24,140 nt of DNA from a virus (IMGVR_UViG_2713896901_000009:1-24140), one strand, 5' to 3'. Positions 666-23,437 are shown, counted from the first letter of the stretch. A program made the numbers and translations. Notes: generated by a model not told the origin, from the letters alone.

Positions 666-2690
666 TTATATTATACAGATTTCAATCTCTGCCATTGCTG
701 TATGTATCGGGCTAATTGCAGCCATATCAATTGAAACTCGCATGCCTCCTGCTCCTGCAGCAGATCTTGATATTGTGAATGCTCCACTCCGCCCAGCAGA
801 ATTTTGATGAACAACAGCGGGTGTAGATGTTGTTACATCCATAAACTTGATATCGCAAGTTGTCTGGTTTCTCCCATTAGACGCCAGTGTTGGTATGCTG
901 AGCATGTTATATTTCACATGGCATTGATGCCCTGCAGGGACAATAAAGAATCCGGCATTAGTTACATCCGTGCCATTAACTCGCGCGCTAATAGTAATCT
1001 TTCCATCTTCATGGAATCCATTATAACCAGCCCAGGCTGTTGATATTTTAGAGTCAGGAACTGGTCCGCTCGTTTCTCCAATAGCAGAGTAAGAGTTGCT
1101 TGAACTGAAAATAAATTGCCTAGAATCAAATTCACCAGCACCAGAAGGTGCGACAACTTTTAAAACCTCATTCACGGTCTGACTAAAACTATTTCCTTCA
1201 ATAAGCAAAGGAAATGCAAAGCCTCCGCTTAACACTGCTGTAGATTTAGTTACAAGAATATCAACCTGATTAGCCAGAAACCAGTTACCTGATATTGCCT
1301 TAGCACATTCAGATGCAGGATTTGTTACTGTCGATGGAATTGTTATTGATAATCCCACTGGATTGTTTTCAACAGTGTTACCAACAAAACTTAAAGCAAC
1401 ATTATACCCAAACACTGCACCCTGTACCGTGTTTTCAGAAATTGTACATCCATGTATTGTCTGACTTCCTGCGTGACCAGCTGCACTTAGTATAATTCCA
1501 GTTTGGTTTAAAACAAACTCGCAGCCAAAAAATCTATTTTGGTCTGAATATCCTTTCCCAGCAGTATTACGATCAATGCGAATACCAGTGCCACACCATA
1601 ATGTACGTATCCCGAAGAAGTTATTAAGATATACAGTTCCCATAAACCTAATGCCGTGGTCGAAATATCTAATATGCACATTCTCGAAAGAACACTCTCG
1701 CACATGATACAAGCCTCCATTTACTGTTTCGTCAACTGTTATCGCGTACTGACTCCATCCAGTTGACATGGCAGATACCCCTTCCAGCATAATGTCGCGG
1801 ATAACTACGCCAGTTATACCCCATTCAAAACGGTAACCATCTTCAACTGGAGTGAGGACAAATCCGTTAACCCCGACAGGAAATTTTAGACATGGCATTT
1901 GGCGAGCAGACACTGCAGATCCGCCATTGCCAGTGATTTTTATTGGTTTGCTGATTATCAGTGGTGCTGTAAGATTGTAATATAAAGGTGGCGTTTGTAC
2001 CGTTAGCGAACCGCCCCATGGGGTTGCATCGATAGCAGACTGAAAACCAGTTGTGTCATCATCTGTACCATTACCACTGGTGAACCAAACGGTTTTTATC
2101 TCATCGCCAATCTGTCGTTTCCATCTTTTTCCAGAAGCATCTACCAGTACAGTCCCACCGTTATCAGGTGTTGATGTGTCTGAAGCGTCAAGAAAAAACC
2201 AACCCTCACCCCCATCATTGTCATGTTCTCTTCCTACGCATTTTATTTGCGTTCCAGAAACGTTAGATGCCCTTATTTGTTCATAAGTCGCCCCAACAAT
2301 ATAAGACTCACCATCAACTGCTGCTAATTTGTCTATGAATGCTGGCAATGCCTGATCAGGGTCATACTTCAGCACATTAGGAAAATAGAACTGCTGCGCA
2401 CCATACGCATCATATACAGCCATAGAATGGCCTTGCACAGTTACAAACTTGGCTATTTGCCCGTTATATACCGGATATCCAGCAGCGTTAATGATGATGG
2501 GTTGCGAAACAGGAACGTGAGAACCGTCTTCGTTCTCCACATAAACCTGAATCTGGTTTTCAGGGTTTACCGGGTCAGTGTCAATTTTACCGATATAAAT
2601 TTTGCCATTGGCTACCGCTTTAAAAGAACGCGCCATAGTGAAGAGTTGCGAAGGCATACTCACTACAACATTAGCTGTAATGTCTGTCAT
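666..2690 (-). CDS. Tailspike protein: P22-type head-binding N-terminal domain fused to a distinct beta-helix receptor-binding/depolymerase domain
   Basis: 674 aa, ATG at 2690 with GGAG 8 nt upstream. The first ~110 aa ([13 protein letters not shown]...VLKYDPDQ) match the conserved head-binding domain of P22-family tailspikes as I recall it. The remainder is Gly/Asn/Thr/Val-rich, typical of parallel beta-helix tailspikes. Last gene of the late operon, as in P22. Confidence 0.9.
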
Positions 2691-2868: not shown

Positions 2869-3792
2869 TCAGTAGTTATGTACTGAAGGAGGCAATTCTT
2901 TATTCTTAAGTCTCATCCATGCGGAAAGATTCGTTGGTCCGTCTGGCTCATTGATATCAACATCTCGTGTGTGGTTGATTAAAACGTCTCTCGCCATTCC
3001 GATAACATACGAGAACTCATGACCGTAGTCGTAGCATCTGCCGGAATAGTTCGATTGAATTTGTTTTAATGCCGGATACAGTTCGCGGAATAATGCCTGT
3101 GAACGGTTGGCATAATCCCATAACCATACAAGGCTGTTTGCTTCTTTTGCAGAAAGCTCGTTGGTTTTCTTCTCTTGTTTTCCAATGAACTCACCTTCAA
3201 GTGGAACTCGAGCTGCAAGTGATAGTGCTTCGGTAAACTGCTCCTCACTGATTTCTTTGTACGAACATCCAAAATGGGATTTTAGTGACGACCACATGGT
3301 GATCATCGCCTTAGCCTGTTTTTCTTTTGGCAGAGACTGACCGCGACTCATGACGAGTTGTTTAATGGCTTCCTGCTGTTCAGTGGTGATTTTCCCCGGC
3401 AATGCCTTTTTAGCTTTGCGCGGGTTAATCACATGGCCTTTAGTCCAGTACTCGTAGAGCACATCGTCACACTCTTCCTGATACTGGATTACCTTGTCGC
3501 GGATTTCAGGGCGGACTTTGTTAGGACTGATGGTTTGCAGCCAGCCATTCAGTTTACGCAAAGCAAGGCAAATCATGGTCTGCACACCACCAACTGAAGG
3601 TATTGCGATTTCCACAATACCTTTAGCAAATCTTTGTTTTAACTTTGTAAACTGTGAAGCCCAATCCATACCCATGCCTTCAACGATAGGTTTCATTGGG
3701 GTATACGGTTCGCCGTTGTGATTGACGACATAAAGCTCTGCGCCGTGGAATGGCACGTTGATAGTAGATACTGCTGTTGCTATACTTTTCAT
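2869..3792 (-). CDS. ant: Antirepressor (Ant-like)
   Basis: 307 aa, ATG at 3792, directly downstream of the arc-like gene and upstream of tailspike, the P22 immI position of ant. The N-terminal region ([11 protein letters not shown]...[13 protein letters not shown]) resembles antirepressor N-terminal domains. Domain assignment is from memory. Confidence 0.65.
3758..3786 (+). promoter_or_regulatory. Candidate sigma70 promoter antisense to the ant 5' end (Psar-like)
   Basis: TTGATA (3758-3763), 17-bp spacer, TATACT (3781-3786). The predicted start near 3793 is directly opposite the ant start codon. Confidence 0.4.
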
Positions 3793-3860
3793 GTCAGTTT
3801 TTCCTCAAAATTTACTGGCGATTTAAGCCCGAGCTACTCGCAATAGCTTGGGCTTTACTC
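3793..3860 (+). ncRNA. Candidate sar-like antisense RNA covering the ant ribosome-binding site and start
   Basis: From the promoter above to a 12-bp stem-loop (AAGCCCGAGCTA / TAGCTTGGGCTT, 3825-3855) followed by TTTACTCATT. About 65-70 nt, the same size, position and orientation as P22 sar RNA. On the minus strand the hairpin has no U-tract, so arc-ant read-through is allowed. Confidence 0.4.
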
Positions 3861-4005
3861 ATTCTGGACAAACAATTCCATCCTTAGCTACTGACTCCTT
3901 TAGTCTCCTCAATACCTCATTACTGAACGACCGATCATCCTTTTTCGCGGACTGCTCCAAAGCCTTTTCCAGCCATTCTGGCATCCTTAATGTCTTAACT
4001 TTCAT
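3859..4005 (-). CDS. arc: Arc-like ribbon-helix-helix repressor (48 aa; below the ORF-track size cutoff)
   Basis: ATG at 4005 with AAGGAG 5 nt upstream, TGA at 3859-3861. Translation MKVKTLRMPEWLEKALEQSAKKDDRSFSNEVLRRLKESVAKDGIVCPE carries the Arc/Mnt RHH signature (LRMP ... RSxSNEV..RL.ES). Confidence 0.8.
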   Translation of the reverse strand: MKVKTLRMPEWLEKALEQSAKKDDRSFSNEVLRRLKESVAKDGIVCPE

Positions 4006-4023
4006 TTTTGCTCCTTTGTATGT

Positions 4024-4073
4024 GGTACGCATACATAGTATTTAGGTACGCATTGATAGTCAATAGATACCTA
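4024..4073. promoter_or_regulatory. Operator-like repeats in the arc/mnt divergent control region
   Basis: Direct repeats GGTACGCAT at 4024-4032 and 4045-4053 (21 bp apart, flanking the -10 of the arc promoter). A 31-bp imperfect dyad TAGGTA...ATTGA-TAG-TCAAT...TACCTA at 4043-4073 overlaps the -35. Confidence 0.45.
4035..4063 (-). promoter_or_regulatory. Candidate promoter for arc-ant (Pant-like)
   Basis: Minus strand TTGACT (4063-4058), 17-bp spacer, TACTAT (4040-4035), about 30 nt upstream of the arc ATG. Confidence 0.45.
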
Positions 4074-4109
4074 CATATCCTGTGGTAAAAAATTATTCAG
4101 GATGCGCCG

Positions 4110-4361
4110 ATGTCTGATCGTAAGTACAAAAACCCTCAAGTGAATCTGAGGCTTCCTGTAGAGATAAAGGAGCGTCTTATTGAACTAGCTGAGGCTAATT
4201 CTCGTTCATTAAATGCTGAGATGGTCGCAGCACTTGAAGCATGGACCGAAAAAAACAAACACATTCAAGCACTAGATCTTGCAACTATAGCATCGCGACT
4301 GATAGAGCTTGAGCATGATGTTGAGAAGTTAAAATGTATGCATGGCAATGGTGAAAAATGA
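4110..4361 (+). CDS. mnt: Mnt-like ribbon-helix-helix repressor
   Basis: 83 aa. The N-terminus PQVNLRLPVEIKERLIELAEANSRSLNAEMVAAL matches the Arc/Mnt RHH fold pattern. Divergent from arc as in P22 immI. Confidence 0.8.
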   Translation: MSDRKYKNPQVNLRLPVEIKERLIELAEANSRSLNAEMVAALEAWTEKNKHIQALDLATIASRLIELEHDVEKLKCMHGNGEK

Positions 4362-4675
4362 AACGTATCGCTATCCTATTGCTCCTGTGTCTCTCGAGCA
4401 TAGCTAACGCAGAAACAAAATCAGACGATAGCAGTTTTGATGAAATACAAGGCCTCATGATAGCTTCGAAAATGGCTGGTATGTGTGGTGCAATCAAACA
4501 AATGGCAATATTCCAAGAATCTACAAACATGCCGGGTGGGAATGAATTCTTACAGAGATTCCTTACTACAGAGCAAGCAAGGCTTGGGATGACTCCGCAG
4601 CAATTTCTTGAAGCATGTCAGAAATCAATCTCTATTTATACCACCTATTACAATATGAGCTCTGAGAAAAAATAG
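4358..4675 (+). CDS. Small secreted protein of unknown function, translationally coupled to mnt
   Basis: 105 aa. ATG overlaps the mnt stop (ATGA). Sec-type signal peptide MKRIAILLLLCLSSIANA with AxA site; mature part has two Cys. No family recognised. Confidence 0.6.
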   Translation: MKRIAILLLLCLSSIANAETKSDDSSFDEIQGLMIASKMAGMCGAIKQMAIFQESTNMPGGNEFLQRFLTTEQARLGMTPQQFLEACQKSISIYTTYYNMSSEKK

Positions 4676-4684
4676 ACTAGGATC

Positions 4685-4870
4685 TCAACAGCTTCCGCGT
4701 CCCTGAGTAATTCTGTTGCGGATTTGCTTCTTGCGGTGGTTTAGGCTGGAGAGCTTGGCTTCTGCTTCTGATATTTGCGCATCCAAATCTTTTAGTTCAA
4801 GATCTGAAAGGCGCTGGTCAAGCAGGGTTTGGTTTAACTCAATGTTGTTCAGACGTTCTTCTATAGTCAT
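4685..4870 (-). CDS. Hypothetical small coiled-coil protein
   Basis: 61 aa, ATG at 4870 with AAGGT 7 nt upstream; heptad-like Leu/Glu-rich sequence. Lies on the late-transcript strand. Weak. Confidence 0.3.
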   Translation of the reverse strand: MTIEERLNNIELNQTLLDQRLSDLELKDLDAQISEAEAKLSSLNHRKKQIRNRITQGRGSC

Positions 4871-4895
4871 ATTGTTACCTTAGTGGGAGATTAGT

Positions 4896-5120
4896 ATGAT
4901 TTCTGCTATTTTATCGGTGCTGCTAGCGTCATTATTCATCGGAGTGGTGTTGATCTCCCCGATGCCAATAATATCAATATTATTCATCTTGATGATCGGC
5001 TGGTTGTGGCTTAAAAAGGCAAGAAACGATTATTTTTTATCCATAAGAGATAAGCAATTGGAGCTTTTCCGCTTGGGGTACACTGGCGACTTGCCATTCT
5101 TAACATACCAAAAAAAGTAA
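4896..5120 (+). CDS. Small two-transmembrane-helix membrane protein
   Basis: 74 aa. GGGAGA 5 nt upstream of ATG. Two hydrophobic segments (ISAILSVLLASLFIGVVLI and IISILFILMIGWLWL), basic C-terminal tail. Followed by an intrinsic terminator. Confidence 0.55.
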   Translation: MISAILSVLLASLFIGVVLISPMPIISILFILMIGWLWLKKARNDYFLSIRDKQLELFRLGYTGDLPFLTYQKK

Positions 5121-5126
5121 TAATCA

Positions 5127-5149
5127 AGCCGGGTCACTCCGGCTTTTTG
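5127..5149 (+). terminator. Rho-independent terminator after the 74-aa membrane-protein gene
   Basis: AGCCGG-GTCACT-CCGGCT followed by TTTT, 7 nt after the stop. It overlaps the last codons of the convergent minus-strand gene. Confidence 0.6.
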
Positions 5150-5499
5150 ATATGTCGCTCGCAGAACTCAACAAGCCTGCTCATTAAGTAGCAGTAAGTC
5201 TCATTGGCTCTTCCTGGTTCAACATCAACGCCGACCCTTGAGCAGATATCGAATGCCATGTGAGCGCACTCATGGGCAATAGTAGATAGTTTGCCATTGA
5301 ACACGCCTATCACATGCAAAACACCATTCTCGCTACTCATTGTATGAGACGCTCCGTTGGCGTCCGAGTCATGCACGTCCACGCCAAGTTTTTGATGCAG
5401 GCGTTGCCATTCTGGAAAGTCTCTGCAAAACACAATTGTACCGCTCTCAAAGAGCGGAACAAGCATTTTTGGTACGTTTCCAATGTTAACTTTTTTCAT
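5134..5499 (-). CDS. HExxH-motif protein, possible small zinc metallopeptidase (ImmA/IrrE- or SprT-like)
   Basis: 121 aa. Motif KLSTIAHECAHMAFD (H-E-x-x-H), with a further Glu/Tyr cluster (ETYCY) downstream. Start is ATG at 5499 with AGGA 4 nt upstream. Family assignment is tentative. Confidence 0.45.
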   Translation of the reverse strand: MKKVNIGNVPKMLVPLFESGTIVFCRDFPEWQRLHQKLGVDVHDSDANGASHTMSSENGVLHVIGVFNGKLSTIAHECAHMAFDICSRVGVDVEPGRANETYCYLMSRLVEFCERHIKKPE

Positions 5500-5529
5500 G
5501 GTATCCTGCTCAAAACTAAGGAGGTTGGT

Positions 5530-5736
5530 GTGAAGCGATTGATTGTAGGGCTTGCTGTAGTTGCTTTTTTTATCTTCTCGGCTTCGACTGGTTACGGAGT
5601 TAGATTCTCATCATCAACAATCAACGATAAGATTGAATGCAGATACATAAGCGTTTCCGGCAAATTCTCCAGAAATTACTGGTATTCAGATAATGGAATC
5701 ATGGGTATTAGCAATTGCCCTTTATTTGACAGATAG
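5530..5736 (+). CDS. Small protein with N-terminal signal/anchor sequence
   Basis: GTG at 5530 preceded by AAGGAGG at 5-nt spacing. 68 aa with hydrophobic N-terminus KRLIVGLAVVAFFIFSASTG. The ORF-track upstream extension is antisense to the HExxH gene and looks non-coding. Confidence 0.45.
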   Translation: MKRLIVGLAVVAFFIFSASTGYGVRFSSSTINDKIECRYISVSGKFSRNYWYSDNGIMGISNCPLFDR

Positions 5737-5793: not shown

Positions 5794-7950
5794 TTATTGC
5801 ATTTTGGGTTGGTCGTCACTGGCTGTAGTCTCTTGCTGAGATAACCATGTGATAAACCCCGTGCGAGCAATAGTTTTTGCTTCATCTGTTGATAGGGTTT
5901 TCTCCCATCTCTTAAATGCATTAGATCGCATCAGCTTCCTTTCTATTACGCGTCTCACTTCTGCTCTGTCTACTGGTGCGTTTTGCAGGCGAAATAGCAT
6001 TGATTTAAACTCAGGAGAGGACAGTAGAGCATCAGCAGCCTTTATCCTGCTTGTTTTCCCTGACATCAATGCAGCCGATATTACCCCTGAAGCACCTGCT
6101 CCCAAAAGGCCAAATGAGCTTGTAATTCCTTCCGCCGCAATAGCTTTTGAGGCTATTCCATAAATTTTTGCGAGACTACCCTTTTCTTTCAGAAAGTTAT
6201 TAACTTGCTGATCCACAAGGCTACTAGCATACTGCTTACCAGTATTGAGTCTATTCATAGCCTTAGCTGCTTGATAAATCGTATCAAGGCGCTTTGATGC
6301 ATCTGTGCCAATAGCATCACGGAGAGCCTTCATATTGGCCCCATTGCGTGACATTCCGTTATACCATTTTACAAATCCATCAACTCCTAATTGCTGACCA
6401 GGTGATTTGGCATAGCTGGTAAATGCTTTATTCATTGAGGTGAGCGCAACTTCCTGCCGCATATCCTTTGGAATCGACTTCATTAATTGCCTAAAGTCGC
6501 CACCGTTTCCTTTTGCCATATTAACAACAGCACTTTCAACTTTTGGAATTGCTGATTGCTGAAGTTTTCTACCCAAGACGGTTACAGCATCATCTTCAAT
6601 TGATTTTCGTTTTTTTACCAACTCCTTACCAAGCGTCCATAATTCCCCTGCGCCATATTTTTCTGCGACAGCCTGTTGGTCATCTGTTATGGCTGCATAT
6701 AACTTTTTAAGAACACCTGTTTCTTCATCCTTGAATGGACCAGAGCCTTTGCCAATAGCTTGTCCAACCTGCTTTCTAGCGAGATCTAAACGCCCATACG
6801 TTGGCAAGGTGTTTGGATCAAGTCGGTTCAATGTCCGCTTCATTATTGGAGATAATTCATCAATTCCACCTATGTCATCAGCAAAATCCTCTAAAAAATT
6901 CAATGTATTAGTTGCCTCAATCCGGTCTCTTACAGGAACCTTTTCGGCAATTTTGTTGTAGATGTTATCTGACTGATTTTGTAATGATGAAATGGTTTTA
7001 TCAAAATTATCTGCAAGCCTGTCAGAAACCAGTTGCTTATCAAGGTTTCCCCCAAATGAAGTTATCATTTCATCAGCTTTTCTTCCTAATTCAGTAATAA
7101 AACGCTTATGCGCCTCACTAATCTCTGTTCCAGGGAGACTTGCCACTGCATTATCAAGAGCTCTGACAGCAGGATTATTAGAGATCATGCCTGGAGTGGC
7201 ATAATTTTCCAGTTCTAGCTCACGAATAGCATTTATCGCGTTAAAATCAGGATTAACTTCATCGGCGAAATCTTGAATAGCTCGTTGCCCACCAATAAAT
7301 TTATTATCCATTGCACCAGCAGCTTTCTTTAACGTTGCTTTAGATGATTTACTGCCCATCCCTACGGATGAGCGATAAATATCTCCGGCACTATTTTTAA
7401 TTTTTCCTGCAATCTTCCCAAGCGCTGGACCAACAATCTCGGCTACAGGGCCAGCCACAGCGCCAATAGCAGCGCCGGAAGCAACATCGCTATTTGTTCC
7501 ATTGGCTACAATAGCCCCTTCTCCAGCACCAAGCCCTGCGGCGGCAGCCAGCCTTGCCGCCCCTTTCGGAACCTGAGAAATAATCCCACCACCACTAACA
7601 AATGGCGCTGCTTGTCCAACGAACTCACCAACATCTTGTGCGGTTGATGGTTTTGCCGCTAACTTCTGCTGTAGAGACTGAATTGCGGCTTGCTCTTCTG
7701 GTGTCATATCCTGAAACAGGCCAACACCTTTACCAACATCCATCAATCCACTGAGAACGCCATACATAAAACGGTCGAAACCGTTAGCATTATTAACAAC
7801 ATTTTCCTGTCTGGAATTTTCCCCTGGTGAAACCAAAGGTGATTGCTGCTGTTCTGGTTGGGCATCAAGCACAAAACCATCAGGAAGCTGTGAGTTATCA
7901 GGCTGTTCATCCAGAACAAACCCCTCTGGTAAACCTACATTGGTTGCCAT
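5794..7950 (-). CDS. Ejection (internal virion) protein, P22 gp16 position
   Basis: 718 aa, Ala/Gly-rich. Last of the three ejection-protein genes in P22 order; overlaps the gp20 stop. Confidence 0.8.
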
Positions 7951-9284
7951 TGTCCGTTCCTGTAAATAATTTTCTGACCAGTTTTAGGATTTTTCGCGGT
8001 CATACCTTCTCGAAATGTTTGACCGCCAGATGTTGCTTGTTGTGTCTGTTGTTGCGCAGGCTGCTGAATATCTTCATAAAGCTTGGCTTTTCTGGATTGC
8101 AATTGCTTAGTTAGTCCGCTGGGGAGAGAATCTCCATAAGTTGAAAGATAATCATCCATTTGCTGATTAAACTTTTCACCTTCAGTATTTGCCATCAGTT
8201 TTGCGGTGTTGATTAAGTCTTGGACTTGCTCATTATTCAACATCTTGCCGTTAGATAATTGGCTAACATAGTTACCAAGTGTGCCGAATATTCCATCAGT
8301 GCGTTTTACCTGTACTTGCTCACCTTCGCGCACCACAGATTGCGGATCCAGTGATTTCATATAGTTGAAAATCATTCCCAACTGCGCGGCTGGAGTGTTA
8401 CGCTTCCCGAGGGCTTGTAGGTTGTCAGCAGCACTGCGCATTGCAGAATAATTCTTTGAGAACCCATTAATATCACTATTCAGATCTCGAACAAGTTTTG
8501 GGTCAATCTTTCCGCTTTCCTGTTGTTTCATCCCTAATTCCTGCAACTTCAGGGCTACGTTATCATTATGCATTTGTGCCCGCTGAGCCCTGTCTAGTTG
8601 AGCGTTCTGGATATTTGCCCATCCTCTCGCATTCTCCATATCAGCCTGACGGATGCTTTCATCCAATCGCCCTTTCTCAAGTTGGCGACCAACCATCTTA
8701 TCCTGATAATCCAGCATTTTATCCGGGCCAACAGCCCCTAGCGTCATAGTAGTCAGCATGTGTGATAGCTGCTCTGGATTCTGAATACCTGTCTGAATCA
8801 TCCAGTCAGCATTAGCGCCAACGCGATTTAACCTGTCCTTGTTGTCAGTAATGAATTTACTGTAGGCTTCCGGTCCCTGAGAAAGAGCGACGTTAGCCCT
8901 CATGGCTAAATCGCCCATATCGTTGCGTTGCTGATCATTAAGACCGGAAAACGCCTGTTGTGCCTGTGCAACAAACGCTGGATTTTCCTGGGCAAACTTA
9001 AATAATCCCGATGGATCACCAGAAGCCCATGCATCAGCGTGAACCTTATTGAACGCACTAATCGCTTTCTGTTGCTGTTCCTGATTGTAAATATCAGCAA
9101 CTCCAGCCAGACCACGTAACGCGGTCAGACCAACGTTATTTGCACCTGAGCGAGCCAGTTCATTGTTTTCGCGGATCAGACCAAGCGTTGCGTTAATGTC
9201 GCTTGCCTTTGGCGCATTCTCATTTTGCGCACCAATTCCAGCCAGAAAACCACCAGAATTAATACCCTGTTGCCACGTAGCCAT
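7935..9284 (-). CDS. Ejection protein, P22 gp20-like
   Basis: 449 aa, Gln/Asn/Ala-rich. Synteny gp7-gp20-gp16. Confidence 0.8.
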
Positions 9285-9294
9285 TGATTACCCC

Positions 9295-9984
9295 TTAAAA
9301 CAACGAGCCAAGCAGACCAAGACCAGCACCGATACCAGCACCCCACGGAGTTGATAGCTCGAGAGCACTGGCTATGCCACCACCCAAAAGCGCACCGGAT
9401 GCAGCACCACTAACACCCTGCTGCAATGCTGACGGTCGGTTGGCGTTTGCCGCCGCCAGCGCCGCGCTTTGCTGTGAAATCTGACTCATGTTGTTGGCAT
9501 ATGTTTGCCCGGCGTTTGCCTGCCCCTGAAGAGCGCCAAGACCAATATTTGCCAGATTCTGGTAGTTGTTCATCTGACCAGATAGCCATTGCTGACCAAG
9601 CGTTGGTGCGATTGTTGCTAACTGATTACTGGTTGCGGTGGAACCCAATCCACCTGTTGCTTCCGCTGCCGCCAGACTCTGATAACGAGCCTGACCAGCA
9701 AGATCTTTGTACTGCTGAGAGTTGTAATACTGGTTAAGTGCCTGACCTTGCCCTTCCAGAGACGATAAGTTCTCGAGGCTGCCGACATACTTCTCAGCCA
9801 GAGGAGTAAACGGCTTCAGGTTGTTCATGATGGTGTTGAACTGCTGATTTTGCAGGTCTGCGGCATACTTCTGAGCTTCTGCTGCATACTTTGCGCTTTT
9901 ATCGGCTCCACCTTTCCCGCCTTTTTCAGGGCAATAAGGTTCCTCGCTGCGCAGTTTTCTGCCCAGCTTAAATGCATATAACAT
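9295..9984 (-). CDS. Ejection protein, P22 gp7-like
   Basis: 229 aa; Gly/Ala-rich hydrophobic C-terminus (GGIASALELSTPWGAGIGAGLGLLGSLF). Same size as P22 gp7. Confidence 0.8.
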   Translation of the reverse strand: MLYAFKLGRKLRSEEPYCPEKGGKGGADKSAKYAAEAQKYAADLQNQQFNTIMNNLKPFTPLAEKYVGSLENLSSLEGQGQALNQYYNSQQYKDLAGQARYQSLAAAEATGGLGSTATSNQLATIAPTLGQQWLSGQMNNYQNLANIGLGALQGQANAGQTYANNMSQISQQSAALAAANANRPSALQQGVSGAASGALLGGGIASALELSTPWGAGIGAGLGLLGSLF

Positions 9985-22454: not shown

Positions 22455-22948
22455 TGTTGCCCCCACAAACAGACTTCACGCTCAATCTCGCGGCGAGTCA
22501 TCAGCCCTTTCCATTGCTTACCGCCAGCGTATGTCCAGCGCCGTAGCTGATCACATGCGCCTTTGATATCGCCCTGGTTTATTTTGCGAAGAAGCGTCGA
22601 TGTTCTGAAATTGCCAGCACCCACGTTGTAGACGAACGAGTAAAGAGCGCCGCGCGTTGTTTCCGGTATATCGACTTTGATGTACGGGTTAATTTGTCTG
22701 GCGACCGTGGCAAGGTCTTTATTCAGGAGGGCTTTGCATTCTGCTTCGGTATACGTTTTACCGAGCATGATGTCTTTTCCGGTGTGTCCGTGACATACAG
22801 TCCATACACCAACGATATCTTTATATGGTATGTAGCTGACGCCTTCCAGACCATCGTTACCACTTGGGCCAGTGATTAACACAGATGCTATAGCAATAGC
22901 CCCGCCACCAATAGCAGCAGCAACGGCTTTTCGTAATGATGGAGGCAT
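22451..22948 (-). CDS. R: SAR endolysin (phage-21 R-type lysozyme)
   Basis: 165 aa. N-terminal signal-anchor-release segment [20 protein letters not shown], followed by the T4-lysozyme-type E-x8-D-x5-T catalytic motif ([16 protein letters not shown]). Confidence 0.85.
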
Positions 22949-23163
22949 TATTCACCTCTCGCAGCCTTTCTTCTGTCTTCTCTGATTTTGAAGTACAGAT
23001 TTGTCAGATAGGTGAGAAAGCCCAACACAAGGCTTCCAAGCACTCCAATCGCAGCCCACTGTGATGGACTGACCTGATCCAACCACTGCAAAAACCAGTA
23101 TCCCGCACTACCCGCGGATGTTCCGTAGGCAATGCCAGTAGAGATTTTGTCCATTGATTTCAT
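22948..23163 (-). CDS. S: Pinholin (phage-21 S-type), dual start
   Basis: 71 aa MKSMDKIS... with in-frame starts at M1 and M4 (antiholin/holin pair), two TMDs, basic C-terminus. GGAGG 8 nt upstream. Confidence 0.85.
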
Positions 23164-23281: not shown

Positions 23282-23357
23282 TGGTGCTGGTTAACGGACT
23301 TGAACCGCTACCCATTCGCTTACAAGGCGACTGCTCTACCATTAGAGCTAAACCAGC
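23282..23357 (-). tRNA. tRNA-Thr (anticodon UGU)
   Basis: 76 nt. 7-bp acceptor stem GCTGGTT/AACCAGC, D-arm GCTC-TAATGGTA-GAGC, anticodon loop CTTGTAA, T-arm AGCGG-TTCAAGT-CCGTT (one G.U), discriminator A, encoded CCA. Confidence 0.85.
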
Positions 23358-23362
23358 ATGTT

Positions 23363-23437
23363 TGGCGGGACAGCGTGGACTCGAACCACGATAAGAAGGT
23401 TAACAGCCTTCCGTAATGACCTTTATACGACTGACCC
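23363..23437 (-). tRNA. tRNA-Asn (anticodon GUU), with noncanonical features
   Basis: 75 nt. Perfect anticodon stem GAAGG/CCTTC with loop CTGTTAA, T-arm CGTGG-TTCGAGT-CCACG, encoded CCA. But there is a T-T mismatch at acceptor pair 4-69 and only a 3-bp D-stem. Confidence 0.6.

Follow-up and report, generated by a model that had tools for sequence, protein, structure and literature searches.

orf74, an orphan gene for a predicted small membrane protein in the immI region of P22-like prophages

The window analysed here is a stretch of viral DNA of 24,140 nucleotides (IMGVR_UViG_2713896901_000009:1-24140) and comes from a P22-like (Lederbergvirus) phage or prophage. Within its immI region lies orf74, a reading frame of 74 codons. 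The map was fixed by comparison with the annotated genomes P22-pbi and HK620, and the immI order in the window is ant, arc, mnt, orf74, terminator, hkcC, sieA slot and gene 16, which is the P22 type (Table 1). The minus strand carries every structural, injection and lysis gene, and orf74 is on the plus strand, in agreement with the initial annotation, which had placed it on the non-late strand. Two adjoining tRNA genes, tRNA-Thr(TGT) and tRNA-Asn(GTT), are present at 23282-23437 on the late (minus) strand just upstream of the lysis cassette. Rfam searches of the whole window at gathering thresholds, and of positions 4600-5300 at E <= 1, returned only these two distant tRNAs.

Table 1. Genes and other features of the window; positions are counted from its first nucleotide.
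Feature	Position	Strand	Remarks
Tailspike gene	666-2690	-	
ant	2869-3792	-	
arc-like gene	3859-4032	-	
Pmnt-like promoter, TTGATA-17-TATCCT	4053-4081	+	Faces divergent Pant-like site at 4063-4035
mnt-like Arc/RHH repressor gene	4110-4361	+	Pfam Arc, E = 3e-10; position and orientation as P22 mnt
orf105 (phrog_19844), signal-peptide protein	4358-4675	+	Start overlaps mnt stop (ATGA)
orf61 (phrog_7586), 61-aa coiled-coil-like protein	4685-4870	- (late strand)	
orf74-specific mosaic module	4872-5111		Found in orf74-carrying prophages only
Shine-Dalgarno sequence of orf74, GGGAGA	4885-4890	+	Read directly in the sequence
orf74 coding sequence, 74 aa	4896-5120	+	TAA stop at 5118-5120
Intrinsic terminator, hairpin and T-run	5126-5148	both	Equals P22 t_mnt / HK620 tORF59A
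hkcC homologue, 121 aa, HExxH motif, phrog_1365	5134-5499	-	Convergent with orf74, same terminator
YobH-like gene in place of sieA	5530-5736	+	
Gene-16-position protein gene	5794-7950	-	
Ejection-protein genes	5794-9984	-	
Head, portal and terminase genes		-	
S21-type holin of the lysis cassette, with lysozyme and Rz	22948-23163 (holin)	- (late strand)	

Several of the neighbouring genes have features of their own. The hkcC homologue, in which the HExxH motif reads HECAHM, encodes a protein that is 98-100% identical across P22, HK620 and 33 orf74 loci, and it may be a metallopeptidase-like small late-strand gene. It is unannotated in the P22-pbi record, which puts the PsieA promoter inside hkcC. 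Literature searches on hkcC and orf59a yielded nothing relevant apart from a paper on SieA (PMC10883804). The YobH-like gene is positioned exactly where P22 carries sieA, with P22 PsieA-homologous DNA upstream (window positions of about 5469-5499). It encodes a 68-amino-acid protein (Pfam PF13996, E 1.2e-7; phrog_21022) that has an N-terminal hydrophobic segment and is a candidate for an alternative prophage-expressed envelope protein. The place of orf105 is taken in other orf74 loci by a 69-amino-acid gene or, in E. coli WCHEC025943, by a gene for a ClpP-like protease, and an orf105 homologue with 47% identity is found in the sieA slot of phage Kapi1 and of locus L027. The protein encoded at the gene-16 position (718 amino acids) matches no Pfam family, P22_gp16 included, and is an alternative ejection-protein type. 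Most orf74 loci carry the PF26808 gp16 there, and Kapi1 has a protein of 723 amino acids at this position.

Homology to phages Kapi1 and Emek ends at about position 4871, at the start of orf61, and homology to P22 and HK620 begins at 5112, which together define the limits of the orf74 module. The window matches P22 and HK620 at every base from 5112 through the terminator to 5150, and identity over 5112-5532 is about 97.6%. All 33 of the orf74 loci examined are P22-like prophages that share the neighbouring genes. About 1080 blocks of a public collection of assemblies, which stem from Salmonella enterica and E. coli, list the exact orf74 protein. Among 5426 complete E. coli genomes in RefSeq, the orf74 segment occurs in 15 and the hkcC block in 283, and orf74 is a minority cassette.

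In P22, orf59a occupies the equivalent slot, which follows mnt and directly precedes the identical terminator, and HK620 retains the 'HkcD' remnant of orf59a. The DNA of this slot that P22 and HK620 share with orf74 comprises the last two codons (KK), the stop codon and the hairpin. However, orf59a encodes a soluble, basic, Gly/Lys-rich protein of 59 amino acids, whereas orf74 encodes a hydrophobic hairpin protein, and tblastn revealed no similarity between the two. Among 35 loci the two genes are mutually exclusive: 33 carry orf74, and orf59a is found only in P22 and HK620. As an insert between conserved flanks that is present in some related phages and absent from others, orf74 resembles a moron, and like morons it is an extra gene at a gene boundary that is followed by an intrinsic terminator. 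Morons typically bring their own promoter and terminator, whereas no promoter of its own was found for orf74, which is followed by a terminator that is flank DNA. A compositional signature was also sought and is absent, with a GC content of 0.40-0.41 for the module and 0.38-0.45 for the flanking immI DNA. Thus, orf74 corresponds only partly to the definition of a moron.

The gene on the other side of the module, orf61, adjoins orf74 in all 33 loci examined and also in L015, a metagenome contig described below. It is found without orf74 in Kapi1 and Emek. The orf61 sequences of the window and Kapi1 differ at 10 nucleotides and at no amino acid, and polymorphism among loci is mostly synonymous; by these comparisons, orf61 is a real gene under strong purifying selection. 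Its product has a sub-threshold match to XhlA (E 0.056). The head-to-head spacing of 25 nucleotides between orf61 and orf74 is kept even in L015, which is 84% identical to the window region over the alignment.

The translation start of orf74 had been proposed in the initial annotation from a GGGAGA sequence five nucleotides ahead of an ATG, and every element of this arrangement is present, with the spacer at 4891-4895 and the ATG at 4896. An in-frame stop codon at 4881-4883 makes this ATG the sole possible start. The most informative comparison is with L015, which is short, has about 1.2x coverage and holds the only divergent copy of orf74. In this copy, 33 of the 222 coding bases differ (85% identity) and the protein is 92% identical. 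The differences fall at third codon positions in 22 of the 33 cases and at a second position in one. Only seven amino acid changes result, compared to 21.4 expected if the same substitutions were randomly placed (p < 5e-5), and dN/dS is 0.07. The five other frames of the segment contain stops or many changes in the same comparison. The L015 gene uses a GTG start preceded by a stronger Shine-Dalgarno sequence, GGAGG, at the identical spacing of five nucleotides. The initial annotation had made its proposal depend on conservation of the frame in related phages, and the start position, Shine-Dalgarno sequence, length and frame are all kept in this divergent copy, with no frameshifts or stops seen in divergent homologues. 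Because of the shortfall in amino acid changes and the low dN/dS against L015, orf74 is almost certainly a real protein-coding gene.

Copies across the 33 loci are nearly identical and therefore carry little information on selection. Natural variation amounts to 15 variants, in which the exchanges within the hydrophobic part of the protein are conservative (I2V, A4V, L10I, V18A, M23I, L32F, M33T and L39I). The non-conservative exceptions in this part, V18E and P22T, are each found in one variant from one or two contigs. The C-terminal tail hardly varies, I50L and D65Y being its only exchanges. The sole frameshift variants (P0010 and P0018) are 96-amino-acid read-through forms that extend through the terminator; they arise by slippage in the terminal A7 run at 5110-5116. 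In L015, a small ORF with two hydrophobic stretches (VNTQAVIMIFLGLIVAKLYPDWWKAALATVGIYLFLIAV...) follows orf74 at contig positions 410-550 (plus strand), where it replaces the terminator and hkcC. A homologue search for this ORF detected none.

Database searches place orf74 in a single tight cluster. A HMMER search of 1.84 billion cluster representatives recovered only its own cluster, and a search for homologous proteins yielded four clusters that are all at least 92% identical. The database names of these proteins are all 'hypothetical' or 'uncharacterized'. No match was obtained in Pfam, PHROGs, PADLOC or NCBIfam, and the sole hit among PDB sequences, ATP synthase subunit c (E 0.31), is attributable to chance. 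A Foldseek search of the AlphaFold2 model against BFVD gave nothing. Likewise, orf74 peptide patterns and a degenerate DNA pattern for WLKKARNDYF identified no copy among GTDB species representatives or JGI metagenomes. PGAP annotates nothing across orf74 in RefSeq E. coli genomes (NZ_CP027205.2 and 14 others). In NZ_CP027205.2 (locus L037), the locus tags go straight from RS10830 to RS10820 between orf61 and hkcC, which suggests a dropped gene call.

Residues 1-39 of the predicted protein are hydrophobic throughout, with a dip in hydropathy at S21-P22-M23-P24. Membrane insertion energies on the Hessa scale are −2.9 kcal/mol for residues 2-20 and −3.4 kcal/mol for residues 25-39. The AlphaFold2 model (mean pLDDT 77) consists of a helix at residues 2-20, a break at residue 21 and a second helix at residues 22-59. 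Two transmembrane segments, which had been described as clear, are thus plausible in this topology analysis, but the adjective is slightly generous because only a tight SPMP turn lies between them and the second is short (15-17 residues). The basic tail that had also been noted is evident, since residues 40-74 hold eight K/R and four D/E residues for a net charge of +4. Hydropathy, insertion energies, the helix-break-helix model and the conservative exchanges among variants make it very likely that the orf74 product is a membrane protein, and it is probably a small two-helix protein with a basic tail. In the predicted arrangement, helix 2-20, the SPMP turn and a helix at about residues 23-39 would form a hydrophobic hairpin, followed by a conserved cytoplasmic tail of about 35 residues with a net positive charge. 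Hydropathy, the AlphaFold2 model and the positive-inside rule point to an N-in/C-in topology in the inner membrane. An amphipathic tail helix was considered and dropped, as the hydrophobic moment of the tail modelled as a helix is modest (at most 0.34).

The initial annotation also presented orf74 as a self-contained and complete expression unit. This view is not sustained, since no conserved promoter was found for it and the terminator is part of flanking DNA that is also present in P22 and HK620. The gene is indeed followed by a strong hairpin and T-run, as described, although the hairpin starts 5-6 nucleotides past the stop codon rather than seven. The hairpin (AAGCCGGG-TCAC-CTCCGGCTT, positions 5126-5145, with the T-run extending to 5148) folds at −12.6 kcal/mol (z = −3.3), and none of 200 shuffled sequences was as stable. 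The shared structure is annotated as t_mnt in P22 and as 'bidirectional terminator tORF59A' in HK620. The stop codon of hkcC on the minus strand is located inside the hairpin loop, and the A7 run, which codes for Q72-K74 of orf74, is the T-run for termination in the reverse direction. Judged by the identity of the DNA from 5112 onward to the P22 and HK620 terminators, this terminator is not orf74's own.

The ATG codons of orf74 and the divergent orf61 are only 25 bp apart, and the gap holds two back-to-back Shine-Dalgarno sequences. The sole nearby promoter-like site, TTGTTA-17-TATGAT at 4872-4900 (9-of-12 match), straddles the orf74 start codon. It was rejected as the promoter of orf74 because transcription would initiate inside the ORF and because both hexamers are degraded in L015. 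Promoter-like matches in the region number five, compared to 5.1 in shuffled sequences, and weaker sites at 4848-4875 (plus) and 5057-5029 (minus) were set aside as unconserved or no better than chance. In other words, promoter scans and the comparison with L015 revealed no conserved dedicated promoter upstream of orf74. A hairpin at 4865-4901 that includes the Shine-Dalgarno sequence and AUG was likewise dismissed, as it is not significant (z = −0.73) and unconserved. The best-scoring plus-strand promoter upstream of orf74 is the Pmnt-like site, whose layout mirrors that of the annotated P22 Pmnt/Pant pair. Between mnt and position 5126, neither the window nor a locus that carries another middle gene contains a convincing plus-strand terminator. 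The only pattern match in this interval is weak (4916-4930, inside orf74), with a six-pair stem and a T-poor tail, ATTATTCATC.

We consider it reasonably probable that orf74 is co-transcribed with mnt and expressed in the prophage. This assignment follows from the lack of a conserved upstream promoter and of a convincing intervening terminator, from the P22-identical t_mnt and the P22-type immI order, from the 25 bp between the divergent starts of orf61 and orf74, from the rank of the Pmnt-like site as best plus-strand promoter, and from the slot that orf74 shares with orf59a. The rightward immI transcript would begin at Pmnt, pass through mnt and orf105, run antisense through orf61 and then through orf74, and end at the t_mnt terminator. 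The operon would have mnt as its first cistron, orf105 in the middle and orf74 as its last cistron, in the slot of P22 orf59a, and the orf74 protein would be made in the lysogen alongside the Mnt maintenance repressor. However, RNA polymerase must read about 190 nucleotides antisense through orf61 in this model, and a weak, unconserved or activator-dependent promoter inside orf61 could still exist.

The late operon of P22 reads through immI to gene 9. During lytic growth, antiterminated late transcription of the opposite strand would run over orf74 and silence it by antisense. In this model, orf61 is itself embedded in antisense orientation in the rightward unit that starts with mnt. The conserved head-to-head pair of orf61 and orf74 might even constitute a mutually antisense switch that turns the membrane protein off once late transcription begins.

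The best overall explanation, which we hold with slightly better than even confidence, is that orf74 is a prophage-expressed membrane accessory gene with a role in protection at the level of the envelope. The initial annotation had named holin-like, injection-blocking and toxin-like functions as typical of small two-transmembrane phage proteins, and for orf74 these are analogies. P22-like prophages carry sieA between genes 16 and 9, and its product, SieA, is made in the prophage state, resides in the inner membrane and blocks DNA injection (PMC10883804). Similarly, orf74 is located in the interval from the gene 16 homologue to the gene 9 homologue in a P22-like prophage and is encoded on the prophage-expressed strand. 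Tblastn comparisons with P22-type SieA detected this type in none of the 33 orf74 loci. In addition, the other plus-strand cargo near orf74 is envelope-directed, including the signal-peptide protein encoded by orf105 and the YobH-like protein. It is the location in the sieA region, the absence of P22-type SieA from these loci and the envelope-directed neighbours that argue weakly for a protective role. The pattern of constraint suggests that the hydrophobic hairpin is an anchor and that the conserved tail is a specific interaction surface.

Superinfection exclusion specifically is a more tentative assignment, and one that we regard as possible on grounds of analogy. The orf74 protein would then act at the cytoplasmic membrane, where it would hinder superinfecting phages in delivering their genomes. 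Its resemblance to SieA extends to a gene on the prophage strand between genes 16 and 9 and to an inner-membrane protein without a signal peptide (PMC10883804). However, SieA has 162-164 amino acids and three to four predicted transmembrane helices, compared to 74 amino acids and about two helices for orf74, and it is expressed from its own promoter, PsieA, on the other side of hkcC. Moreover, the cytoplasmic FxRYPxEAxxFNK motif of SieA (PMC10883804) is absent from orf74, and the two proteins exhibit no sequence similarity.

Other phages encode proteins with which orf74 can be compared in general terms. T4 Imm and HK97 gp15 are small membrane proteins of phages and shield the cell when DNA is injected. 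The two are named among exclusion proteins in PMC11436027. Neither has a sequence relationship to orf74, which matches no PHROG in a library that covers these phage families. Our searches detected no homology of orf74 to SieA, T4 Imm, HK97 gp15 or any defence family, and by analogy it would work, at most, like one of these three proteins.

Several observations weigh against exclusion as the function of orf74. Homology to known exclusion or defence families is absent, and the proposal draws on position and analogy. The absence of P22-type SieA may reflect linkage, given that the 33 loci are nearly identical in this region and not independent. Furthermore, the orf59a protein in the same slot is soluble and basic, such that the slot dictates neither a membrane location nor an exclusion function. 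The lack of a PGAP annotation for the ORF in E. coli genomes of RefSeq counts against the wider explanation as well. A more particular version, in which orf74 is a minimal injection blocker of 74 amino acids that replaces SieA where it is absent and whose invariant cytoplasmic tail recognises the incoming ejection-protein channel or a host factor needed by that channel, is doubtful.

A different reading, to which we assign a similarly low probability, is that the hairpin anchors the protein while the tail engages a transporter, a sensor kinase or a division/envelope factor of the host, so that orf74 would act in lysogenic conversion and not in defence. Small proteins such as MgrB, SafA and AcrZ act as modulators of host membrane proteins. 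The strongest constraint in orf74 is in the cytoplasmic tail, and the hydrophobic part tolerates conservative exchanges, which favours such a modulator. The gene also resides on the prophage-expressed strand among small envelope-directed cargo genes. In addition, orf74 prophages vary in their tailspikes and ejection-protein types, which implies that orf74 is not tied to one injection machinery. However, the HMMER search found no orf74 homologue of known function, and the partner in this proposal is conjecture.

Somewhat less probable still is a holin-like or toxin-like protein that damages or depolarises the inner membrane, either as an abortive-infection effector or as an addiction toxin resembling type I toxins. 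Under this proposal, weak expression signals together with convergent or antisense transcription would normally hold orf74 at a low level or keep it off. The size of the protein, its two hydrophobic helices, the tight turn and the basic C-terminus are indeed generic class II holin anatomy. Holins and pinholins of this class (S21, PF04971) have about 70 amino acids, two helices, a short turn and a charged, basic C-terminus. Since the divergent starts are just 25 bp apart, orf61 and late-operon antisense transcripts overlap the 5′ end of orf74, and the neighbouring orf61 product has the sub-threshold XhlA match noted above. In contrast to class II holins, however, orf74 lacks a family match and a dual-start motif, is off the late strand and is located outside the lysis cassette. 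A function as the lysis holin itself was rejected, as the late strand carries a complete S21-holin/lysozyme/Rz cassette about 17 kb from orf74, and orf74 has no significant similarity to the holin of that cassette (BLASTP, E = 1.3).

The toxin variant of this proposal encounters similar difficulties. No holin, toxin or defence family matches orf74, and the XhlA match of orf61 is of the chance type for coiled-coil sequences. Type I toxins usually have fewer than 60 amino acids and one helix, and a protein of 74 amino acids with two helices is atypical of them. No sRNA family was detected by Rfam in positions 4600-5300, and the only predicted antisense transcripts over orf74 are the orf61 and late-operon mRNAs. 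Finally, expression from the operon in lysogens is probably constitutive, and a lethal protein would not be tolerated there.

It is very improbable that orf74 is an incidental ORF in a segment (4872-5111) that is non-coding on the late strand, as the leader or promoter of orf61 or as a spacer between orf61 and the terminator: the missing PGAP call, the lower polymorphism of the segment than of orf61 in close relatives (6 versus about 36 variable sites) and the weak minus-strand promoter-like site at 5057-5029 might favour this reading, but the substitution pattern in L015 is unmistakably that of a translated frame with a conserved start, Shine-Dalgarno sequence and length, the low polymorphism is like that of the hkcC block (97.6% identical to P22) because a single mosaic block spread recently, and Kapi1 and Emek express orf61 without the segment.

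The preferred reading of orf74 as a prophage-expressed membrane accessory gene otherwise fits the known mosaic immI/sieA region of P22-like phages and opens no new question. The gene is an unexceptional accessory orphan, and the region that carries it is well known for its mosaic cargo. As a protein-coding orphan it is clean, with purifying selection on its sequence, no relatives among 1.84 billion representatives and no call from the NCBI pipeline. If expressed in lysogens, orf74 would add one more small prophage membrane protein that alters the host envelope. Lysogens of Salmonella and E. coli might gain protection from other phages through it, which would be of relevance to phage therapy and to the spread of prophages.
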